NCBI GenBank assembly: GCA_051294375.1 | Contig: JBJCIZ010000206.1 | Coordinates: forward strand, 12,515 to 39,133 | Length of the DNA stretch: 26,619 nucleotides | DNA from: Paraspadella gotoi | Lineage: Eukaryota; Animalia; Chaetognatha | Direction of reading: 5' to 3' | Notes under the pieces: generated by a model | Databases searched by the model: none | Seen by the model: the letters and a program-made list of their open reading frames with translations, nothing else | What the model was told of the DNA's origin: nothing | Part shown: positions 1,746 to 26,070 of the stretch, one piece after another | How positions within the stretch are numbered: position 1 is the stretch's first letter | Layout: each line of letters begins with the position of its first letter | Position numbers and translations under genes: made by a program

Positions 1746-2755
1746 AATAAATAATTCTTCTTTTTCTCTCTTTTCCCTCTTTAGAACGAACAAAGAAGCA
1801 ATAAAATAAAACCAAATAAATGAAAAAATTAATAAAAAAATTATTATAAAAAATTTAAGAATTAATAATAGAAGGAAGGAATCTTAAAAAGACATTAAGG
1901 CTAACTAAAAATATCCTTCAATGATGATATACTTTTTAATAAAACGAAAAAAAAAAAATTATTAATCAATAAATCTTTTGATCATAGCTCAATCATTAAT
2001 AATATCAATCAATAAACTATATTCATTTATATTTTATAATTATGGTCATGGTTATGAAGACTAACAACTAGAAAAATAATGAGAAGAAAAAGAGATAGCG
2101 AAAGAGAGAAAGAGAAAACGAGAAAACTTAATATAAAATTTTTGACTTTTTTTATATTTGTGTTATGCAAAGAAAAACTTGTATGCATGATTTATCATGT
2201 TGTATTATTTGATTAGCTGATAAGCTCAATTCATGGCTAATTTCAAGATTGCTCAAACCAATTTTTCTTTTACTAACTATAATGTGTATATCGTGTTTGG
2301 ACATAACTTTCGCCAAACGTGGAATGGAAATAAACTTATTTCGTCCGTGTATAATTGATAAAACTTTACGTATGATTGAGAATAATTATTATTAATCATT
2401 GGTTATTTTGTATTAAACCTTCTCTTTTCTTGTACAGATCACGTGATATAATTATTGATCAGCTCGTGTCGGGGTTTTATATTATGATCTATTTTCTCAG
2501 TTCCTTACTCTAAGCATTTCTAATGATTAATGTTGCCTTTGGCCGTCCTTACCTTTTGCTGCAGATTGAGCATGATTTCATAAGAACTTTATTTGGTCTC
2601 TAATATCCACTGAACTTACCCAAATCATATCAAGCTACAATCAGTTCTATCAAGTTTTGCCATCTGCGAATCAGTTAATAACCTTAATGGCCCATACTTC
2701 CGTCTGATGCAAAGATCAAGGCAATCTGTGAAGATTTGGTTTGATTTGAACTTAC

Positions 2756-2909
2756 GCGATTGCGCAGCCCACATTGAACATTGTCGTCCGGAGACCCCAT
2801 TCTTCCGTCCTCTTGAAGTCGGAGAGAGAATTGTGGCACGACTCCGCATTCCACTCTGCAAGTCCGCCACTGCAGCGTCGAAGGCGCACCCCAACAATCC
2901 CTCCAAAGT
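2756..2909 (-). other. Candidate coding exon, unknown product
   Basis: GC-richer island bounded on the minus strand by CCATAG| and |GTAAGT. Open frame reads FGGIVGVRLRRCSGGLAEWNAESCHNSLSDFKRTEEWGLRTTMFNVGCAI. Confidence 0.25.
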
Positions 2910-3817
2910 CTATGGCAAATTCCCATCTTTTTTTTTCACGTCATATGGTCTTGAGCATTTTCATATTGAGCCTAATTAATCATAATCATACGTAAAGTTT
3001 TATTAATTATACACAGACGAAAGTTTATGTCCAACACCTCTATCTGAAATAGAAGATAAAGAAGATTCAGGAGCCAGAGTTAAAGAGAAAATTACCATTA
3101 AATACTTTAGTTTGTTTTAAATATTAGTATTTTAAAGTTTAAAATGTTAGTTTTAACGGTTAAGCGAATTTCCTAAAAAATTAACGGTTAACGAAACTAG
3201 GATTGACCCGAGGACGATTCCTATAAGTTCTGCTTTTTCAATAGATTTTTGAACATAAAAAAGCAGGAAAATTAGTTTAGGATTATCATGGTCGCATAAC
3301 CCGCGACCAAGAGCAGTACAGAAAGATCATTCCAAAGCAACTAAATTAAGCTATTGCTAAAAGCTTTTTGAAAATTAAGCAATAATTGTGCATAATCGTT
3401 ATGCTGCTGTTTATTGAGTTTTCTAAACCTGAAAAGTAAAGTAAAAATATTTTTGACGCTGAAAAACCGGAAGTGACCTTTTTTAGTAATATTTTTAGTT
3501 TGATATTTTTTGTACTAATAAAAATATAAATGTTCATGTTTATTCTTATATTTTCTTGGGTAAAAATATTAAAAAGTGTATTAAATTTTTTTTTCTTTAT
3601 AAAATAAATAAAAACCTTAAAAACTCTATTTGACGCTCGTAGCACTTTGACGCTCTGGATCCACCCCGTACTGTATTTTTTTAAAATTAAATGGGCACCA
3701 CAACTGCTCTTGATCAGACGAATCCATAGAACATGTCATTTCGGGTCTAAAAATGTCAGAAAAGAATCTACTATTTATTGTATTTATTAGTATTTATTTA
3801 GCTTAATTGATTTTTGA

Positions 3818-4068
3818 CTGTACGCTTTTATCCCCCCGTCTTTCGCCAGCGGAAGCTTTTCTTTTTACAATCTCATGGAGGATTTCGTATCTGGATCTCG
3901 TCTCAACGTCGACGACTCTCGCTACTCCTTCTCCAAAGTCTTCACTTTCTCTGGTGCCGAACTCCAGGCGTTTCACCCTAACCCCAACCCTCTCTTTGCT
4001 CCCGTCGCCACTTTCGACTTCTCGCGTCGGCGCGACCTCTCCTACGAATGTCTCTCTTTTTCATTCAG
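3818..4068 (+). other. Candidate host coding exon, unknown product
   Basis: GC-richer island with open frame ...MEDFVSGSRLNVDDSRYSFSKVFTFSGAELQAFHPNPNPLFAPVATFDFSRRRDLSYECLSFSF, ending at donor-like CAG|GTGAAA. No clear acceptor. Confidence 0.3.
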
Positions 4069-4091
4069 GTGAAAATCCTGTCAGGACTCTG

Positions 4092-4281: not shown

Positions 4282-4552
4282 TAGGAGAATACGTCGCTCT
4301 TAGAAGTTTTAAAGGAAGATTTTTTCAACGGAGATTTTCTTTCGCCCCTGGGGAAAATTCCGGTAAAAAATAAAAATGCTCAATTCCGACAGTGTGCATC
4401 TGAAGAGCTCGCATTTTTTCCCTCATCAACATTTTGATATCAAACAAGCCCCAACAAATAGACTGCTTCTGTATAAGAAAATTATCCATCTCTGATTTTC
4501 TATAGAAATGAAAGGGATTTTTTTCTTGAAAACGATATAATATCATGTTGTG
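4282..4552 (+). repeat. Dispersed repeat (truncated MITE-like end); inverted homolog at ~20870-21197
   Basis: TGCATCTGAAGAGCTCGCATTTT is nearly the reverse complement of AAAATGCGAGCCCTTCAGATGCA (~21034-21056). Also TAGGAGAATACGTCGCTCTTAGAA matches the reverse complement of TTCTAAGAACGACGTAAGACTCCTA. Confidence 0.75.
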
Positions 4553-4666
4553 GCGGATTCACACCGCCTCACATCCACCATCCTTCAGCCAAATCTATTG
4601 GCTCAGAGGGGAACACACCATCCCAGGCGTAGTGTTCCATCCACAGTCCTAATGACTTCCCTCTGC

Positions 4667-4746
4667 GTTGGCAAAGCGAGACCGTCCTAGGGTAACCGCG
4701 CCAGTGACTGGAGGCGTCACTGAGGGTGGAAGCCCCCAAAGTCAAC
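4667..4746 (+). ncRNA. Candidate twister ribozyme (type-P5 permutation), copy 1
   Basis: P5 GUUGGC/GUCAAC; then AAA-GCGA-GA-CCG-UCCUAGGG-UAA-CCGC-GC; P3 CAGUGAC/GUCACUG; P4 GGG/CCC around loop UGGAAGC. The order matches twister core elements (GA+T1, U|AA, P2, GC for T2, AAGC loop). Deviations: A-C mismatch in P2, one nt missing in T1, very short P1. Confidence 0.6.
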
Positions 4747-5144
4747 AGTGAGATGCCCCATCCCAATGGGCATCACAGGCAACCGGCTGTTGCCATAATT
4801 GGTGAGCCCTACTATCGAACATGCAACTCTCAGGGTACGCTACGACAAACGCCTATGCCCTGCGACTTTGGGTACGCTACGACAAATGCCTATGCCCCTG
4901 GGGTATGCTACGACAAACGCCTATGCCCCCACAACTCTCGTTCCTCTCTCTCCCACTATGGTAACAGTCTTGTCAGACACCTCTCAGGCTTGAGGAACCT
5001 GAGTGATGTCTTGGCCCGGGGATCCTGTGGCGGTATATTCACACCGCCTCGCGTCACAATCCTTCAGCCAAATCCATTGGCTCAGAGGAGGAACACACCA
5101 TCCAGGAGTAGTGTTTCATCCACAGTCCTAACGACTTCCTCTGC

Positions 5145-5223
5145 ATTGGCAAAGCTAGACCGTCCTAGGTAACCGCGCCAGTGACTGGAGGCGTCACTGA
5201 GGGTCAGAAGCCCCAAAGCCAAC
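5145..5223 (+). ncRNA. Candidate twister ribozyme (type-P5 permutation), copy 2
   Basis: P5 UUGGC/GCCAA; GA-CCG-UCCUAGG-UAA-CCGC-GC; identical P3; GGG-UCAGAAGC-CCC. P2 (GCUA) and T1 (CAG vs CCG) carry mismatches. Confidence 0.5.
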
Positions 5224-5557
5224 AGTCAGATGCCCCATCCCAATGGGCATCACAGGCAACCGGCTGTTGCCATAATTGGTGAGCCCTACTATCGAACACG
5301 GAACCTTCTCAGGGTACGCTCGACAAACGCCTATGCCCTGCCGACTTCGGACGCTACGACAAACGCCTATGCCCCTGGGGTACGCTACGACAAACGCCTA
5401 TGCCCCACAACTCGCGCTCTTCTCTCTCTCTCCCACTATGGTAACAGTCTTGTCGACACCTCTCAGGCTTGAGGAACCTGAGTGATGTCTTGGCCCGGGG
5501 ATCCTGTGGCGGTATATTCACACCGCCTCACATCCACCATCCTTCAGCCAAATCCAT

Positions 5558-6514
5558 CCAAAGTTACATACGAAAATTCTAAAGTCAATTATGAACAACG
5601 TAACATCAGTGAACATCAATTTGTAAAAAAAATTAATTTTGTTTTTTAATTTTCGCAGTAGGCTATATTTATATATAGTACTATCCTTATAAAATCGAAA
5701 AATTTCAAAATAGGCTTTTCTTAATTTTGATTGCATTTGAATTCCTGTCAAAAGTTGAAAAAGAAAATAAATCATTTTTAAAAATTCTTTCATTAAGTGG
5801 GTTAAAAAATTTAAAAAACTATTATTTAATATAGGGGCAGATAGCTTATTATTAAATGAATGGATAATTTTTATATTGGTTGTACAAATTTTCATAAAAT
5901 TCAGCTCCTTGTATTTGATGCTAGTGCGGAGTACAATAAGTATTCCCGATCTAATACTTAGGGAGTGTCTTTTCATACAATTGAAACATTCTTGAAATAT
6001 TTTCCACTTCATTGATAGGAAGCCAGGTACTCTGGGATGAATAAACGAGTCTGGTGAGAGAGTCTTGATTGAAAGTTGCGGACCTGCCTATGTCATTATC
6101 TTGTAAGAGTGATGGAGGCCTTAAACCACAAGCCTGTCCAAAGGTCAGGGGCAAGATAGGCTTATTTTTAAATGAATGGATAATTTTTATATGGTTGTTA
6201 CCAATTTTTCATATAAAAAGTTAATTTTCAACTAATAATATAGCTTTTTCTAAATTTTTGACCCACTTAATTTTAAAAAGAGTTATATTCTTTTTATCAA
6301 TTTTTTATGACGAATCCAAATCTTGCAAAAAAATCTTTAAAAAAATTTTTTGAAATTTTAAATTTATTGTTTGTACTAGTATAAATATGGCTTACTGCGT
6401 AGAATTGTAAAATTTATTATAAATTTTTTATTACATAAATGTTCATTAGTATATGTTGTTCGTTCCTCATTTTAGAATTTTAATTAAAGTTAGATTTAGA
6501 AATTTTACTACGCC
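5558..6514. mobile_element. Non-autonomous DNA transposon with long diverged inverted arms (~5560-5830 and ~6230-6514)
   Basis: ATTAAGTGGGTTAAAAAATTTA pairs with TAAATTTTTGACCCACTTAAT, and CGCAGTAGGCTATATTTATA pairs with TATAAATATGGCTTACTGCG. The right end ACTACGCC|TTA recurs at 8440-8450. A TTA flank would fit PIF/Harbinger-like (inference). Confidence 0.6.
5900..6146 (-). pseudogene. Degraded N-terminal APE-endonuclease-like fragment of a LINE ORF2
   Basis: Frameshifted pieces TFGQACGLR (cf. WNxxGLR), IKTLSPDSFI..TWL (cf. PDxxxIQETWL) and SGILIVLRTSIKYKEL (cf. GGxxIxVR..I.Y.E) occur in the expected order. Confidence 0.45.
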
Positions 6515-7179: not shown

Positions 7180-8426
7180 GAATTTAATTTCATAGTAGAT
7201 TTCTACTATAAGGTCAAAAAAAAGTACTCAAATTATCCATCAACATTTTAACAATGAAAATCATGGTCTAGAAAACTTACGAATTATACCAATAGAAAAA
7301 ATTTAGACCAATGAATAATATAATAAATCAAAATAAATTAAGACTAGAAAGGGAAGCACATTGGGAAAGAAAATTTCAATCTCTTTACCCTTTTGGATTA
7401 AATGTAAGATTAAAAGGTATAGGAGATTTTGTACCATTTCAACAAAACTATCAAATATAAGGAAATACAAAAAGAAAAAAACGATCACACGGAAAAAGAA
7501 AACGAAAAAATAGAAGACCAGGGCATATTTTTACTTTAACTTATTTAAAAAAATTATATAATAAAATAAAGAATCAAGAATATCACATGCATTATATTAA
7601 AACCTATCTTTATAGTTTGCCACGAGGAAAATTATTAATTCTATACAATGAGAGTAGAAATATGAATGATAATGAATACAGAAATTTACGAGATAGCATT
7701 ATAATGATATCAGGTATACAATTATTTAAACCAGTTTTAACAGAAAAAATTAGAAAAAGAAAATAATACCACATTAATTTTATAGATAATGGCTTAGACT
7801 ATATTAATCTTAGTGGGATTTTAAATAGTAAAACCATACAAAACAAAATACCAGCATATTTTAATTACAAGGAACCCCCAATAATAGGATATAGATATAA
7901 TAAGAGCATAGCAGGTTTAATATTTAATTGTAAAAAATGCTTGCAAAATGAGGATGTTAATAATATTGATATAAATTTAATGGTCTGTGATTGTGAAAAT
8001 TCTGCATTTAAAGATCCACATAATAACCATATTATAACAGGTAATTTGAATATAATAGAAAATGAAAATTTCAAGAAAATTTTGAAAAAAGGGCCAAAAT
8101 ATAGATTACCTAGAAAAATAAATTGGATAAAAAATATGGATTATGGATAATATAGTAAACTTCATAGATATGTATGCTAAAGATTGGTTAAAAAAAGAAA
8201 ATCAGGCCAATAAAGACAAATATAAATAAATATCAATGTTTTAAATGTATGGAAAAAAGAAGTTTTAAATTTAGTTAAAAAATGGATAGAATATTGCAAG
8301 AAAGTTAAAAATACTTTCCCATTAAATATTACGGGTTCTTTAAAAACTGAACTAAATAGATTACAAGATAATTTTATAATAACACCAGCGGACAACTCAA
8401 AACAATATTTTTTTTACATGTAAAAA
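7180..8426 (+). mobile_element. Penelope-like retroelement, Naiad/Chlamys-type (GIY-YIG before RT), degraded and cut by a gap
   Basis: In order: HQHFNNENHGLENLRIIPIEK..LRLEREAHW..FQSLYPFGLN (GIY-YIG C-half); basic KKRSHGKRKRKNRR; HYIKTYLYSLP; LFKPV; NGLDYINLSGIL..IPAYFNYKEPPIIGY; CDC..HIITGNLNIIEN..KGPKYRLPRKINW; LQDNFIITPAD..NNIFFTCK (start of PLE RT). Several frameshifts and stops. Confidence 0.85.
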
Positions 8427-10888: not shown

Positions 10889-11220
10889 TGAGAGTCCTTT
10901 TCTGAGCTATTCTAACATCGAAAGCAGGGATTTCTTTTACAAGATTTTATTTCTGATCAGCAATAAACTAGAGGGAGCGACGAGAGAAGTGAAAATACAA
11001 ATTCTACAGAGGCAAAAACGATCGAACCTTAACGAAGGGCACCTCGAAAAATTTCTAATTAAATGTTAATACTGATCGGACGCTTACGAGAGCATCTGAA
11101 TAGCTCTGATAATATTTGAAAATGTGTTTTTGTTTATTTAGGTTAAGTTCGAATTAAAGTATTTGAAATGTATTTAAAAATACTAAGGCGCGATTTCCAG
11201 TTTTCATTCCGGAGCTTTCA
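10889..11220 (-). repeat. 3' LTR (approximate)
   Basis: Direct repeat of 15372-15721 (CTTTTCTGAGCTATTCTAACATCGAAA, ATTCTACAGA..CAAAAACGATCGAACC), with TG...CA ends. Confidence 0.75.
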
Positions 11221-11229
11221 GAACCCCCC

Positions 11230-14200
11230 AGCTGCGCGTTCTCGGTATGAGAGGGCGTATTGTTCTATTTGAAGCGTTTGTGGCGGGCTGCAGCGACGCT
11301 GAGGACGCTGGATGAAGGCGCCGGAGGGAGGGTCTGGAAGGGCCGCCGCGGCGCTTGATCGCGTCGCTTGACTGGGAGGCAGTTAGGCGTTTGGAGGGCG
11401 CCCGGCGCGGAGCGCGCGGAACCGTCGGGGTCGCCCGCGTCTTTCGGTGAATGGTTGAGGCGGTCGACGGAGACGTCGTCGTACGGCCGCCGATTTCGAG
11501 GCGGAAGGTCTTTGAGGCGCGTGTAGACCCGGAAAGGGGCCGTCGTAGAAGGCTGCAAAGGCGTGCGGTGGGGCCGCGTCTCACGAGACGAAGGCACGTC
11601 TTTGAGTTCGTCTGGGAAACGTTGAATGCGCGCGCGGGGCGTGGCGACGTGCCGTCGATTGGGGCGGAGAGTGCCTTGCACTTCTTCTCGGAGGGTCGGA
11701 GAACTCTGTGTGCCGGGCGCCGCTGTCGAGGACAAAATCGGGCCGGCAGTGGCCAACTCCTCGCCGGTAGACGAGCTCAGCGGCAGAGGCGTGGAGTCTT
11801 TCTTTGAAGCGGTGCGCAGGCCGAGCATCACCCATTGGGAGTTTGTCGACCCAATCTGCGGACGGCGAGATTTGGCGCGGAGGGACGGCCTTTGAGGTCC
11901 CGGTGGACGTTCCCATGCCGTTTGCTTGAGGATGTGGTACGACGTTGCTGTGTGAGGTTGGCTTCCAAGTGGTGACGCGCCAGTTGACGCCCAGGTTCGG
12001 ACACCAACTGAGTTGCCGCGGTCCGAAGTGATTGTTGGAGGGTCGCGCCGAAACGTGCGACCAACGGAATCGATAGTGCGCGCGCCCCGTCACCGCAGTT
12101 GATGTCCTGAAAGAGGAAGCGCCTCTGGCCAGCGCGTGAAGCGATCCGACGTGGAGAAATTATTGTGAAGCCCGTCGACGCCGAAGTCGGTCCACGGGGT
12201 CAACGTGGACTGCTGGAACCTCTTTTCAGGAGGGACGAGTCCTCTATGGGCGCCGACACGTTGCGTCCTCAGCTTTCGCCGCTGCGCGGACGGCCTGCCG
12301 CGCCAGTTGGCGGCGTCTTTCGCCGCGCCGGGAAACAAATTTTTTTTGTGACGATGCGACTTGGAAGTCTTTATTCCAGGGTGCGCACGTGTTAGGGCGT
12401 CGAAACTGTCCGAGCGCCATCCTTCGGCACGAGCGGCCCGCGCGACGCCCGTCGGCGGGAAGACGTCGCCAGAGGATGGGAATGCGTCGGAAGTTTGTTG
12501 TTTGAGGCGGCGGCGCGGGCACTGGACGTCTGGGAGGCGGTCGGTGTCGGCGTTCGTCCGTTTGGTCCCCGCCATTGCCTGCGAAGTCGACACGCCGGAG
12601 ACGATGACCGCCATGACGTCGTCGGGGTGCTGACGACGCGCGAGAGGGCGTCGGCGACGACGTTGGCTTTCGGAGACGTGTTTGAGTTCGTCGGTGGAAC
12701 TCCGAAACGGCACCGCAGAAGCTTGATTGCCTTGGCGCGCCGTCTTGGAGTCGGTCTTCTTGTTGATGGAAGGCACCAGGCTGCGTGGTCCGTGAAGAGC
12801 GTGAAGGGACGCCCTTCGAGGGAAATAACGGAAGTCGCGCACGGAGAGGTGGTGCCGGCCAGCAGCTCCGGTGTAGGGTGGATATTTCTTTGGCTGTCGT
12901 TATCATGGCCTTGGAGAAGAAGCGAGGGGGGGCGCCAGCGACCTCGACGAGCTGTTCGAGGAACGCGCCGTCGGCGAAAGTCGGAGGCATCGCCGTGAGC
13001 GCGGTGGCGCCGCCGTGACGGGATGATGAGCTCCCCCACGGCCGTCAGCTGAGGGCCTTTTTGGTCCGGGTTAAACGCTTTCCAGTTCGGTTTTCAGTCA
13101 ATCGACGATTGGGCTGTGACGACCTTTGAGAGCCGCGTAGAGAGGCGCCATCAGGCTCAGCCGCGCGTGGAACAACGGTGAAGATTCACCATTGCCGAGG
13201 AACCTTGAAAGCTTCCTTGACGGTTCTTTGGGACGCGGGAATCCGTTGTCGCGGCCACCTTTGAAGGAAGTTGGACGGACACCCCCGAGCGTCGATGTGG
13301 TGACCAGGAAGTCGAGGGAGTCGACGCCGAACCAGGCCTTCTCAGCGTTGATGACGGATCCGTCTTGCTCCTGGAGGCGGTCGAAAAGGCGCTTAAGGTT
13401 TTCAGGTGCTGAGTCCGATCCTGAGGCGACGAGGATGTCGTCGAGAGATGCGAACACTCTCGGCAGCCCCTTGCAGACGGACAGTCCATGAGCCGTTGGA
13501 AGCTTGAGCGGGTTTCTATCGGCCGAAGGGCATTGCGGAAGGTATTCGAAGACCAAGGAGTTGTGATGGCCGTCTTCGGGATGTCTTCTTCCGCCACGGG
13601 ACTGGTCGTACCCCTGAGCAATTCGACCTTGGAGAAGACGGTCATCCCGCCAAGGTCGGGGAGAGTCAGTGAGTGTTTGACGGTGATATCGATTCGTTCC
13701 TTGCGTGGCGGCGTTGAGGCGTCTGTAGTCGCCGCCAGGCGCGGAAACTTGCCGTCGTTTGGCGACGACCCCTGTGAAGCGGAGATGCCACGGAGATTGA
13801 GGACGGATAACGGACAGATTCGAGAGAGGCGCTGAAGTTTTCCTACAACTACCTTTTTGACGGCGCGAGCTTCGTCCGGCGACCAATCGAACGATGCCCT
13901 TGCGAATACCGGATGCCCTTCCGTTGGATGCCGAATGGGAAACGCAGTGACGAGGCGTTGAGGCTTCGAATTTTGGGGGTTAGGTCGGGATCGATCGCGA
14001 TAGAGTCAATGCAACGTTGGAGACTGCCCAAAGGTGATAGGTCGGCTAGTAAGGAAATGGCCGCTGACAGTACGAGCAGGGATGGTTCTCGAACCGTGCT
14101 CCGGTCGATGGGCGACAGCACGCGCAAAGAGATCGACCAGGAGTCCAATGGAGGGCGACAAGGAAGTCGGTCGCCGGAGGAACTTTGGAACGCATTGGAC

Positions 14201-14450
14201 TTCAGGCCACGACGCAGTTGCGACGAGGGCATTTGGAAGGCGAAGCGGAGTGGTCAGTGGTAGCGGCTATCCCGAAAGCCGGATGGAACGAATCCGTTTG
14301 ACAGACCCGGAGCAGGCCGACGCTGCCGCCCGGTTGGTCCTAGTTCCCACGTCGAGGCCGGGAAGGAAGCTGACATTCCGCGACCGGATGTCGCGAGGAA
14401 TCCGTGCCGGAGGTAGTCTCGCACGTGAGCAGGAGGAGAGGCGACGGTCG
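11230..14450 (-). pseudogene. pol: Gypsy pol (protease, RT, RNase H, integrase), many frameshifts
   Basis: RT: GDYRRLNAAT, TVFSKV, PVAEEDIPKTAITTP, FQRLMD, FASLDDILVAS. RH: DASDF, GAFLEQ, FFSK, LEGRPFTLFTDH, NVVADALSR. INT: AHPGIKT, DRFTRWPEALPL, ARFG, HPQANG, WVDKLP, LGLRTA, SAAELVY. PR: degenerate ...NVSFLP. Confidence 0.93.
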
Positions 14451-14599
14451 CCGCGCATCAACTGACGCCCAGGCGTTGTCGTTTCCCGAATTTCATTCTT
14501 GGGTACTTAATTCCAGTAACACCTCCGGCGCGCCAAGCAACGGCGCTCCTGCACCGCGCGGCCTTAGGCGCGCGAGTAGCAGGCGATGACTTCACGCAA

Positions 14600-15347
14600 G
14601 ATTGGCAGTCGGCTTATGAACGTTCGCGCCACACAGCAACATCGGGAGGAAATTGGACCTCCATGGCGGCGTCGCAAAGGGCTTGAAGGACCCGGAGTCC
14701 GTCGCGAATTCCACCTCAGTTGACGATTCGCGTTACCGTAACGGATTCGAAGTAGTATTTGTCCGCAAGACACTTCGCAGAGGTACGTCGGCGACCACCG
14801 GCGTCTGAGTGTACGAACGAGCAGGCGGACATACGACCGGCAAGGCGATGCCCGGCAGAAGTCGCAGCGCGATGACGTCGTCCATCTTGACGGCCAGTCG
14901 GGATGAGAGAACGAAGCTCGCTGGACAACTACCTGCGGGCGTTTCCACGAGGGTTTGACAGTGGAGAGGAGTTTGGCGGACGCCGTTCCGGCTTTCGGAT
15001 CGCCGGAAGGTGTTCCAGGAGGCGCAGTTTAAGCGCGTTGAAGGGAGATCCTCGAGCTACTCGCAGTCCGATCTAGAAAAAATTCGCGGATTTTGCGGGG
15101 AGGGACCTACCCTGGGAGAGTGACTGTGCACGGAACATAGGTAAGTAGCGCGAGTGGCGACGCACGTAATGCGCGCGATTGGCAAATGTGGGCTCGGCAG
15201 CGGACGAACAAGTTGAGGCTTCATTGGGCCAAAATCTGGAAGTATTGACGGATACGGCACGCAGCGGCGACGAGCGTCTTGTACTTCCCGGCATCTTGAA
15301 GTTAGGTCTGCGGAGAATGGGGGACTCAAGGAATTCGTCATGTTCAT
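14600..15347 (-). pseudogene. gag: Gypsy gag, frameshifted
   Basis: AVSV..LPDFWPNE(P)QL..AAEPTFA.ARIT..TR matches the VKLPxFWPxxPxLWFxxxEAxF..IT...R motif of invertebrate Gypsy Gag. Lies upstream of pol. Confidence 0.75.
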
Positions 15348-15371
15348 TGTTCGCTAGTAGGAACTTTCAAT

Positions 15372-15721
15372 TGAAGAGACCCACTTTTCTGAGCTATTCT
15401 AACATCGAAACGCAGGGAAATCTTCTTTTAAGATTTTAATTTCGCATCAGCAAATAAAAACAAGAAAGAGAGAGAGAGTGAAGAATACACATTCTACAGA
15501 GCAAAAACGATCGAACCATGTAACCGAGAGCACCTACGAAACATTTCTAAATAAAAGTTAAATACTGATTCGGACACTATAAACGAGACATCTCGGAAAA
15601 TAAGCTCCTGAAATTATGAAAATGTCGTTTTTGTTATTTTAGGTAAGTTAGAAATATAAAGTATATTGAATGCTATTATAAAATAACTTAAAGGCCGCCA
15701 CGATTTAGTTATTCTAATCCA
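15372..15721 (-). repeat. 5' LTR (approximate)
   Basis: Direct repeat of 10889-11210, with TG...CA ends. No clean PBS visible. Confidence 0.75.
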
Positions 15722-16021
15722 TGTTAAAATTCACTTTATCATTTATTATATTTATTACTATATTTCATATTATTCAGTGGGAAAAAAAATATATAGTTAT
15801 TTAAGTCCAAATTCCATTGTTGAAAATACTCAAATAGAAATCACTGCCAAAGTTAGCAGATTCGAAAAACGAAAGTTTTTAAGTTTTTACAACGATTTTA
15901 TTACAAATTATAAATGTTAAAAATTTGGATTTTTATCAGTGAATAAACAACATTTAAAAAATTGGGAATGCGGGGGTAAAAAGTTGATTTGTAAAGCGTT
16001 CCATTTTCTCCATCGATTTAG

Positions 16022-16301
16022 AGCCAACGTGGAACTTTGGATTTCGTGTCTGCTTCTCTTTTCACGGCGATCGACATTCTTCAATTTTTCTCTACGGCTG
16101 GTCTACTACGCCCACCCGACATCCAGGTTTTACGATGGCGGCGCTCGTCAACAATACAGCGCGCCTTTTGCGTGGGAACCAAAGCACCGATCGGGGACTC
16201 GGGAGTTGGCTTCCGTTGGCGGCGTCGTCGGCGTTCGGTTGCGGAGACCGATCTCCGAATCCGGCGATTCGGAGCAGAATTCGAAATTGGAGGCGAAGAT
16301 G
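16022..16301 (+). other. Candidate host coding exon, unknown product
   Basis: Pyrimidine tract plus TTTAG| acceptor; GC-rich open frame ANVELWISCLLLFSRR...GGVVGVRLRR...LEAKM; possible donor ATG|GTGACC. Confidence 0.3.
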
Positions 16302-16631
16302 GTGACCCAACTGAACCAATCAAGTTCCACCTCACATCTCACCGCTTTTCTATTATTTTTTATTTAATTTTTTTTCTTCTTGAATATTTCAATTATTTAA
16401 TCGACTGAGATAGAAATTATTATCGGCGTTTTTCCTTCCAGTTATACAGCTTTTTCAGAGGAATTATAAGCCTGATCCCCCCCCCATCCCCTAATGAATT
16501 TTAATGTCAGGCATCGGGAATTTAATATCAGTCGTGAACAAAAACACAATACTTTGCAATCATTTTTTTAATAACGGCATTTTTTCATTTATACTATGAC
16601 TGTGACATTACAAAGGTGGGCTCTAGTAAAT

Positions 16632-19310: not shown

Positions 19311-19889
19311 TAAAACAGTCGCGAAAATCGCGCTTCAAATCCGATCCACTTCGCTTAAAATCGAACTCGTTTTGATCCAATAAGGATTTGAACTAAGCCT
19401 TTAAACCGATAATAGCGATTATGGCGAAACCGGGCCTCAATAAGAGAAAATAAAGAATAAAGCCCCGGAAAAAAGGAATCCTTACAAAACTAATCACAAA
19501 AATAACATAATTATAACAGAATAAAAAAGGGAAAAGACAAGAGAGCCAAAGAAGGTAATTAAATTGAAAGTATATTGAGGCTGATCCACCAGCAAAAACT
19601 ACTATTAAACTAACTCAATTAATATCGTTAATTCAAGATTGAGAATTCACTATCGTCACTTCACGATTTAATTTTTCATTTTTGAATCATTTTAATTTTA
19701 GTAACTGATTTTAATATGATAGTATCTAAAACTATAATTAAAAAGATAATGATTGATAATGGTAAAGTTAAATTGTATGCAATGAATAAATTAATTAAAA
19801 CAATGATGATGACGATAGTATTTAATATCTCAAATTTGTCATATCTGAATCCGGATTGACTACGATAATTTAGCGGTAATCAGCTAAAA

Positions 19890-20645
19890 ATTATGCAAGT
19901 GAAATAAGGATATGCAAAGTTGAAAAAGGTATGCAAGTTGAAAAAGGTATGCAAGGTTGAAATAAAGTATGCAAGTTTGAAAAAGTATGCTAAAGTTGCA
20001 TTGAAAAAAGTATGCAAGTTGAAAAAAAGTATGCAAGTTGAAAAAAGTAATTGCAAAGTTGAAAAAAGTATGCCAAGTTTGAAAAAAAGTATGCGAAGTA
20101 TGAAAAAAGTATGCAATTTGAAAAGTATGCAACTTTGAATAAAAGTATGCCAAGTTGAAAAAAGTATGCATCCTTTGGAAAAAGTATACATACTTTGAAA
20201 AAAGTATGCATACTTCGAAAAAACTATGCATACTTTAAAAAAAGTATGCATACTTTGAAAAAAGTATGCATACTTTGAAAAAAGTATGCATACTTTAAAA
20301 AAAGTATGCATACTTTGAAAAAAGTATGCATACTTTGAAAAAAGTATACATACTTTGAAAAAAGTATGCATACTTTGAAAAAAGTTTGCATACTTTGAAA
20401 AAAGTTTGCATACTTTGAAAAAAGTTTGCATACTTTGAAAAAAGTTTGCATACTTCGAAAAAACTATGCATATTTTGAAAAAAGTATGCATACTTTGAAA
20501 AAAGTATGCATACTTTAAAAAAAGTAGGCATACTTTAAAAAAAGTAGGCATACTTTAAAAAAGTAGGCATACTTGGAAAAAATAGTATGTAAGTTGGAAA
20601 AAAGTATGCAATTTGGAAAAAAGTATGCATACTTTAAAAAAGTAT
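19890..20645. repeat. Minisatellite: ~19-bp AAAAAAGTATGCAAGTTG-type units grading into a 20-bp unit with palindrome AAAGTATGCATACTTT
   Basis: Directly visible; near-perfect 20-bp period over ~20160-20570. Confidence 0.97.
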
Positions 20646-24445: not shown

Positions 24446-24613
24446 AGAACTCGAATGCAACAGGCGTAAATCGTTGTATTGGCAAAAAATACAATTCCTA
24501 ATTATCACTTAGCAACAAAGAACGAATAAATAATACAATGGTTACAAAATTAAAAATTTAAAGTCCAAATATTTAAAATTTAACTGAATCGGGATTGCAA
24601 GACGACGTTTGGA

Positions 24614-25611: not shown

Positions 25612-26070
25612 AGACTCGAATCAACAGAGTCGTAAATCGTTGTATTGGCAAAAAAACAATTCCTAATATTCACTTAGCAACGAAAAGAGAGAAAATAATA
25701 CAATGATTACAAAATTAAAAATTTAAAGTCCAAACTTTTAAAATTTAACTTGGAATCGCGGATTGCAAGGACGACGTTTGGAGTGATTTACTATGAACCT
25801 TAATGAACCTTAATATCAAAATTAAAGGAATAAATAACAAACTACAGGGCATTACAGCATATTTTCATATCTAACTTTTGTTTATCTACTCCCCCATATC
25901 AAGTAAACCGACAAATTTTTGAAACAATATTTTATTGAAAACTTTATTAATACAATAATTAATTGGTATATGATTTAATGACAGGTAAGCGCAAATTTTT
26001 ATGTTCATTTTCATCGCTTAACTTGTATTTTTGTTTTTGCTGAATTTACAAGATTGTAATCGAAGAGATT

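Follow-up and report, generated by a model that had tools for sequence, protein, structure and literature searches.

The DNA analysed here, a stretch of 26.6 kb that we call the window, carries a small non-coding LTR element with a twister-like ribozyme motif at the same place in each of its two complete LTRs. From the sequence we judge it fairly likely that this element is active and acts as an LTR retrozyme, with a twister in place of the hammerhead and a circle-based cycle. Its anatomy as an LTR element of the TRIM type is close to certain, and descent of the motif from a genuine twister is highly probable. In the available text of the sources consulted, LTR retrozymes are described from plants and carry type III hammerheads (PMC7761336, PMC4918200), and animal retrozymes are described as non-LTR elements with a type I hammerhead and neither PBS nor PPT (PMC7761336; bioRxiv 10.64898/2026.07.22.740005); the same split is covered by PMC6765202, PMC11722881 and PMC12029980.

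Anatomy of the element and of its family copies

Two full units stand head to tail (4549-5025, 477 bp; 5026-5504, 479 bp) and are followed by the first 53 bp of a third (5505-5557). The two are about 92% identical, with 449 of 489 aligned columns matching, 18 substitutions and 22 gap columns, and their GC content is 52-56% compared with 23-35% in the adjoining 500-bp bins. The original prediction, made from the window's sequence, of a GC-rich head-to-tail tandem of about 477 nt in 2.1 copies therefore holds, and so does its statement that no ORF is conserved: the ORF list contains no Met-started frame common to both units, only two stop-to-stop frames of 154 and 95 aa. The 477-bp period is not among the TRF repeats for the window. 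What had been overlooked is that each unit divides into a 249-bp LTR and an interior of about 229 bp, with PBS-like and PPT-like sites at the boundaries. The order in the window is LTR-interior-LTR-interior-truncated LTR, and the supposed 53 bp of terminal redundancy are really the start of a truncated third LTR. One LTR-interior-LTR copy measures 249 + 228 + 249 = 726 bp, below 1 kb, and combines direct repeats of 100-250 bp, fixed ends and a short non-coding interior, the features that define a TRIM. The parts of the element, all on the + strand, are as follows.

4545-4548 (+): possible 4-bp target-site duplication, ATGT, in the left flank, proposed from the sequence; its right side would be hidden by the truncation of LTR3
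4549-4797 (+): LTR1, 249 bp, TGTGGCGG...GTTGCCATA, TG...TA with an imperfect 6-bp terminal inverted repeat; from piles of contig ends
4587-4603 (+): 6-bp hairpin containing ATTGG (a CCAAT box on the opposite strand, a promoter role being a guess); from sequence, with variants 4593 and 4594 in the loop
4610-4638 (+): 7-bp hairpin upstream of the ribozyme, partners 4615 and 4633 both variable; from contig variants
4800-4820 (+): PBS-like site, TGGTGAGCCC...TCGAAC, 2 nt past the LTR end; from sequence and position
4833-4930 (+): three 31-bp hairpin-forming repeats in interior 1 (a packaging or protein-binding role being a guess); from repeat and fold analysis
5018-5025 (+): PPT-like GGGGA then TCC (GGGGATCC), directly 5' of LTR2; from sequence
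5026-5274 (+): LTR2, 249 bp; from unit alignment and sequence
5277-5297 (+): PBS-like site 2; from sequence
5312-5406 (+): three 31-bp repeats in interior 2; from repeat analysis
5497-5504 (+): PPT-like site 2; from sequence
5505-5557 (+): LTR3, ending after 53 bp, with an unrelated abundant repeat from about 5560; from unit alignment and contigs

The LTR termini, TGTGGC...GCCATA, are complementary at 5 of 6 positions, and the earlier claim that terminal inverted repeats are lacking is thus wrong at the level of the LTR. The primer site is PBS-like by position, with TGG standing 2 nt after the LTR and TCGAAC further on; a tRNA gene search of the window found none. The PPT-like tract is likewise assigned by its place before the next LTR and is short, GGGGA then TCC only. 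The rest of the truncated LTR3 was sought across the window and not found. Both flanks of the element (4400-4548 and 5560-5800) are abundant repeats of other families, the right one beginning exactly at the break in LTR3.

We studied the family through contigs of public runs, 12 of the 14 listed runs containing part of the stretch and nine of these coming from one organism (A) in three studies. Five runs were compared (X1, X5, X9, X10 from a biofilm and X11 from a second organism, B), one of which may be the window's own source and two of which, X9 and X11, are perhaps RNA. Among the rows listed, a junction immediately before the first letters of the LTR leads into unrelated DNA in 126 of 4979 contigs of X1, 102 of 1714 of X5 and 22 of 313 of X9, and a junction behind GCCATA (4797) does so in 92, 75 and 14 contigs respectively. 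These piles come from the best 20 of 486 loose-end rows, and the same piles appear in a separate contig comparison. Agreement among the flanks beyond the junctions is low, only 0.43-0.64; the element is dispersed and abundant, with insertions in many unrelated flanks. These two fixed junction points, present in contigs of three studies, indicate that each unit combines an LTR with an interior. On the left the flank is rich in A and closes with ATAT, on the right it opens with AT and is rich in T, and this symmetric arrangement, which has no poly-A tail, would fit insertion by an integrase rather than a poly-A-tailed insertion. One contig (X5 record 12, 1034 nt) carries a solo LTR, 4557-4797, between other DNA on either side, and summed depth over 4555-4810 is several times that over the interior, a ratio that is not a copy number.

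Copies of the family thus occur as LTRs, with fixed ends and in one case alone, an outcome that the original prediction had itself named as refuting it, and the frame of an animal non-LTR tandem repeat in which the element had been placed gives way to the design of plant-type LTR retrozymes and TRIMs; the idea of a retrozyme is not removed by this change. Nor does the element resemble an RTE LINE with a twister at its 5' end, since the ORF list holds no endonuclease or reverse transcriptase frame in or after it and the 3' ends of its copies enter unrelated flanks.

Only three contigs of X10 and one of X11 (depth 6) belong to the family, too few for any claim of spread between species. In X10 record 10, and at loose ends behind 4827 in X5, X9 and X10, the LTR end and the PBS-like site are common and the sequence then diverges; these two parts may also belong to sister families or to the helper itself. 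A 3737-nt contig of X9 (record 27, depth 45) has LTR 4654-4800 at one end and may represent either an extended copy of the family or a solo LTR lodged in another repeat.

Beyond the host, metagenome contigs scanned by 16-mers gave at least 120 loci, and among the matches listed none extended beyond 19-25 bp; four viral scans and one scan of prokaryote genomes returned no relative.

The twister-like motif and its variation

The motif has the P5-type permutation, and its two copies and predicted cleavage site are placed as follows.

4667-4746 (+): twister-like motif 1, P5-type permutation, in LTR1; from a descriptor, the Rfam P5 and P1 consensus lines and other copies
4693-4694 (+): predicted cut at U|A, 145 nt into LTR1; from the UAA register against the Rfam consensus
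5145-5223 (+): twister-like motif 2, in LTR2, with a predicted cut at 5170|5171; from Rfam alignment, descriptor and contigs

In motif 1, P5 (4667-4672/4741-4746) is followed by AAA and by P2 (4676-4679/4696-4699), with GA at 4680-4681 and the CCG of T1 at 4682-4684; a short P1 (4685-4692) leads to U|AA, and T2 (4700-4701/4732-4733), P3 (4702-4722) and P4 (4724-4726/4734-4736) complete the fold, with a loop 4 that is one base short. P2 consists of 3 bp plus a C-A, P1 of 2-3 bp and P4 of 3 bp. UAA, GA, GC and U-nnn-AAGC all stand in register with the Rfam P5 and P1 consensus lines. The motif occupies the same place in LTR1 and LTR2, where the original prediction had located it, and the two U|A sites lie 477 nt apart. 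The twister call, the cuts at 4693|4694 and 5170|5171 and a 477-nt monomer all remain good as predictions.

Of the two pseudoknots, T2 (2 bp) pairs in both window copies, GC with GC as had been proposed. T1 (3 bp) is broken in both copies as assembled, in line with the mismatches already noted in them, and pairs in most family copies; the loop U-CGG-AAGC proposed for the family is indeed present in other copies. Motif 2 differs from most of them at 5156 (P2) and 5206 (T1), the intact form of the latter accounting for 535,832 of 548,550 depth in X1, and the base missing behind 4727 in the loop of copy 1 is present in 79 contigs of X1, 58 of X5, 17 of X9 and one of X10. The window's private differences are often single-base gaps in one-letter runs, which, together with the broken frames of a nearby Gypsy element, makes assembly error a likely cause of its flaws. 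T1 reads CCG/CGG here, as against GGG/CCC-like letters in the Rfam P5 and P1 lines and GUA/UAC in phage controls, and since the letters differ from the controls on either strand, both partners have changed together. Distant covariation for T1 was not obtained from the scans outside the host: among loci with the CCG/CGG pattern, the descriptor accepted none of 120 from viruses and two of 120 from genomes, the two being taken as chance matches with 2 mismatches and a broken P4, and Rfam gave no match on the 20 loci submitted out of 65 from one viral scan.

The Rfam models, which had been suggested as a check, do not recognise the motif. There was no significant ribozyme match on the whole window, and on a 1.1-kb stretch the best was twister-P1 at 17.4 bits (E 1.5, gathering threshold 67.2) over 5166-5237, with none for P5 or P3; the sub-threshold P1 alignment falls in the same register as the motif. 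P1 is 8 bp long in the Rfam P5 consensus but 2-3 bp in this element, whose P3 hairpin of 21 nt takes the place of a linker of 4-6 nt, and these differences likely explain the miss. Neither strand contains a CUGANGA hammerhead core, and no Rfam hammerhead model matches.

We also used a descriptor of the P5 topology, written after the motif had been seen. All four zero-mismatch matches among 240 phage loci were Rfam twister-P5 above gathering (contigs L266, L278, L290 and L301, which then served as controls), and none of three two-mismatch phage matches tested, out of five such, was an Rfam twister. By this descriptor, copy 2 has 3 broken features and copy 1 has 4, and in a first version with slightly narrower ranges copy 2 was the sole match with at most 3 on both strands of the window. 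Dinucleotide shuffles of one unit (n = 24,866) reached at most 3 mismatches in 60 cases, 56 of them at 3, four at 2 and none at 1 or 0, and the common family form has one flaw by hand count, the C-A in P2.

Variation among the copies was taken from depth-weighted unitig calls (the full list of 28 rows at 2% or more; position 4728 was dropped as a by-product of a one-base gap, and 4799/5276 was left out because it differs in one contig comparison and is absent from the variant list of the other). Within 4667-4746, 4 of 9 apical-loop positions vary compared with 3 of the other 71 (Fisher p=0.002), and of these three, a change at 4737 creates an A-U pair, one at 4742 retains a G-U, and one at 4716, in 3%, disrupts the terminal pair of P3. 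No variant at 2% or more occurs at the catalytic and pseudoknot positions that are unpaired (GA, CCG, UAA and AAGC). Of the pairings proposed for a check, the CCG/CGG of T1 is kept in most copies, and P2 has the fixed C-A, with no variant at 2% or more. The whole core is kept in an X10 contig that departs from copy 1 in 11 letters and in 8 gap positions, of which four fall within the P3 loop. The hairpin partners 4615 and 4633 vary in 70 and 77 contigs of X1, 54 and 58 of X5, and 13 and 15 of X9, which would exchange A-U for G-C if the two are linked. The non-loop part of the ribozyme varies at 3 of 71 positions against 12 of 97 in the upstream LTR, a difference that is not significant (p=0.10). 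As the final 51 nt of the LTR are also free of variants, the youth of the family explains part of the conservation.

A proposed life cycle and its alternatives

In the cycle that we favour, a transcript spanning two LTRs would cleave itself once per LTR at the same site and so release a unit of the following extent.

4694-5170 (+): predicted 477-nt monomer, consisting of the last 104 nt of the LTR, the interior and the first 145 nt of the next LTR; from the cut sites

Such a monomer would lack a terminal repeat for strand transfer, and circularisation would restore a whole LTR. The terminal R repeat on which normal strand transfer depends would be lost through the two identical cuts, and a circle is then the simplest template that could still work; reverse transcription from the PBS could run around it to give arrays, and a Ty3/Gypsy helper would reverse-transcribe and integrate it. 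Plant retrozymes are modelled in the same way, with a circle and reverse transcription around it (PMC7761336, in its available text). Beyond the anatomy of the DNA, we infer every step of this cycle. The monomer folds with a z-score of -2.38, only 2 of 100 shuffles being as stable, and the LTR end and PBS region pair with the far interior. As for the helper, the Gypsy element of the window itself was considered and for now rejected, as it shares no sequence with the element. The divergence seen in X10 record 10 and at the loose ends behind 4827 has the pattern that ties plant retrozymes to their Gypsy partners, partial sharing of the LTR end and PBS followed by divergence (PMC4918200, in the text available).

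Folding bears on whether the motif would act at all. A nested fold compatible with the twister lies 11.5 (copy 1) and 10.3 (copy 2) kcal/mol above the minimum when pseudoknots are not scored, compared with 2.1-4.6 kcal/mol in the four phage twisters. Part of this gap would be offset by the three G-C pairs of T1. The preferred fold of copy 1 is a rod in which GGGU and a strand of P2 pair with the side of P4 and loop 4, the CCG of the P2 strand being able to pair with loop 4, and the P3 stem and P5 are common to both folds. The rod may be functional, or may mean that the motif is silent. If functional, it might stop a ligated circle from cutting itself again, much as plant retrozyme circles are predicted to keep their hammerhead in a 'blocked' fold (PMC4918200). 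In natural twisters examined in the CHiTA study, as far as its available text goes, imperfections in P1 and P2 and P3 hairpins are well tolerated, pseudoknots and catalytic bases are sensitive, and flanking sequence can alter activity (PMC11662667); the sensitive parts are those kept in this element.

These observations must be set against other explanations. An unlikely one is that the element is a TRIM whose active twister serves linear RNA processing, trimming 5' ends or read-through 3' ends with one LTR cut, while strand transfer is ordinary and the array arose by unequal recombination. The twisters of retroelements described so far in the available text of PMC8501958 and PMC7761336 act on linear Perere-3/RTE RNA by trimming its 5' end, the competing fold would yield partial cleavage, and TRIMs often occur in tandem or as solo repeats with no ribozyme involved (PMC6934838). 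The same motif stands in both LTRs, however, where cutting at both would lose the R repeat, and the layout is that of plant LTR retrozymes, for which circles have been shown (PMC4918200, PMC7761336). Another reading is an ordinary high-copy TRIM in which the twister is an inactive relic captured in the rod and the loop-biased variation reflects selection on a hairpin for packaging or reverse transcription. The gap of 10-11 kcal/mol, the fixed C-A in P2, the weak P1 and the missing Rfam match all point that way, as do the service of the P3 stem and P5 in both folds and the equally loop-biased variation of other LTR hairpins. Against it, GA, CCG, UAA and AAGC show no variants at 2% or more and are kept in the divergent X10 contig, and tested twisters tolerate flaws in P1 and P2 (PMC11662667, in its available text); we regard this explanation as improbable.

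Closer to the frame of the original prediction would be a non-LTR tandem retrozyme of the Penelope-mobilised type, with a twister for the type I hammerhead. A head-to-tail order, a single ribozyme per unit, a Penelope-like fragment 2 kb away and a closed path of 488 nt formed by two X10 contigs would all suit it. We nevertheless consider it very improbable, as the TG start and the TA end each have a fixed place of their own in the unit, a solo LTR and PBS-like and PPT-like sites exist, the excess of summed depth over the LTR, read as above, is large, collapsed LTR-interior-LTR copies also give a closed path, and animal retrozymes are described without LTR, PBS or PPT in the available text of PMC7761336. 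Least credible of all is that a GC-rich hairpin region yielded the pattern by chance. The descriptor was post hoc, and copy 2 as assembled has p of about 0.002 per unit in a setting where many windows were read, but the common family form, by hand count, beats all 24,866 shuffles and the Rfam P1 model aligns in the same register.

Relation to known elements and to the neighbouring sequence

The closest parallel to an LTR retrozyme with a twister is found in the plant LTR retrozymes (Cervera, Urbina and de la Pena 2016, PMC4918200), which, in the available text of that paper and of PMC7761336, are also non-coding, with a ribozyme in each LTR (here the twister-like motif) and an interior bounded by PBS and PPT (here PBS-like and PPT-like sites), and also form solo LTRs, dimer to tetramer arrays and a predicted structured monomer between the cuts, with a Gypsy helper proposed. 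They differ in having a type III hammerhead where this element is twister-like, LTRs of 300-400 bp and monomers of about 600-1000 nt (here 249 bp and 477 nt), a PBS for tRNA-Met (here PBS-like by position only), and plant hosts in which circles have been shown (here probably an invertebrate and a predicted circle). Metazoan non-LTR retrozymes, as described in the text available (PMC7761336, 10.64898/2026.07.22.740005), resemble it as tandem non-coding repeats with one ribozyme per unit and a likely animal host, but use type I hammerheads in units of 150-400 bp derived from Penelope pLTRs and have no LTR, PBS or PPT.

Animal TRIMs (biv-TRIM, PMC6934838; Helenus and Ajax, PMC10886601) share the size below 1 kb, repeats of 100-250 bp, and solo and tandem forms, and have a PBS and a PPT where this element has PBS-like and PPT-like sites, and those of Helenus and Ajax also have structured RNA in the LTR, their cargo being tRNA or 5S (PMC10886601). 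No ribozyme is reported for them in the available text, the word being absent from that of PMC6934838 and occurring once, in a reference, in that of PMC10886601. The PPT of biv-TRIM is the 7-nt GGGGAGA, compared with GGGGA then TCC here, and TRIM arrays also form by recombination without ribozymes (PMC6934838, in the same text). The twister T-variants of Schistosoma Perere-3/RTE (PMC8501958, in the part available) likewise belong to a high-copy animal retroelement and have a weak or missing P1; there a coding non-LTR element bears a single twister at its 5' end, whereas here a P5-type permutation lies in both LTRs of a non-coding one. The Rfam twister-P5 family (RF02684) has the same order, P2'-GA-T1-P1-UAA-P2-GC-P4-U-T1-AAGC-P4', but its model is without the P3 hairpin, of 21 nt in this element, whose T1 is CCG/CGG and whose score is not significant.

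A search of the full-text literature, with subscription journals, Repbase and the CHiTA supplement (with possible LTR-borne twisters) outside its scope, brought up no paper on an LTR-borne twister. On the evidence at hand the element probably works like an LTR retrozyme while standing outside both the hammerhead-defined retrozyme family and, at threshold, the Rfam twister families. There is perhaps an even chance that no retrozyme with a twister, and none of the LTR type outside plants, has preceded it, and that it is a Gypsy-dependent invertebrate element in which a different ribozyme class in the LTR independently gave rise to a circle cycle, which switches from a self-cutting fold to a protected rod and back, and which exists in very many copies. 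If so, both known pairings, of LTR with type III hammerhead in plants and of non-LTR with type I in animals, would be broken; a circle-based life cycle would have evolved again with another catalyst, with a bearing on the repeated origin of viroid-like circles from genomic retroelements; and the twister would have a second role in retroelements beside the 5' trimming of RTE LINEs, the only role in the literature examined. Since the Rfam models miss a P5-type form with P3, other such families would be overlooked.

A Pfam search of 16 frames of the window gave no matches. A GC-rich Ty3/Gypsy element at 11200-15400 (-) retains reverse transcriptase, RNase H and integrase remnants with many frameshifts, its best named relatives being flatworm and mollusc sequences at 30-38% identity. 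It is flanked by an AT-rich direct repeat of 300 bp (15384-15685 and 10897-11182, 79% alike), outside which a second repeat of 94 bp stands in swapped order. At 7461-8150 (+) lies a Penelope-like fragment, 67% identical to proteins of about 915 aa with an N-terminal GIY-YIG, a layout described for Naiad/Chlamys Penelope-like elements in the available text of bioRxiv 10.1101/2021.04.23.441226. Judged from these two neighbours, the host is probably an invertebrate. Short GC-richer islands at 3818-4072 (+) and 16000-16400 are exon- or promoter-like and have no Pfam match. A near-perfect 27-bp hairpin at 25575-25635 matches a miRNA model by shape only, and a 101-bp direct repeat (24485-24585 and 25650-25750, 88%) stands astride an N gap. 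Further repeats are a 20-bp satellite of about 38 partly self-complementary copies (19886-20645), a diverged tandem repeat of about 146-150 bp (827-1535), and a MITE-like sequence (2339-3022) whose 50-bp inverted repeats, 90% complementary and 584 bp apart, enclose a GC-richer core with an open frame of 121 aa.
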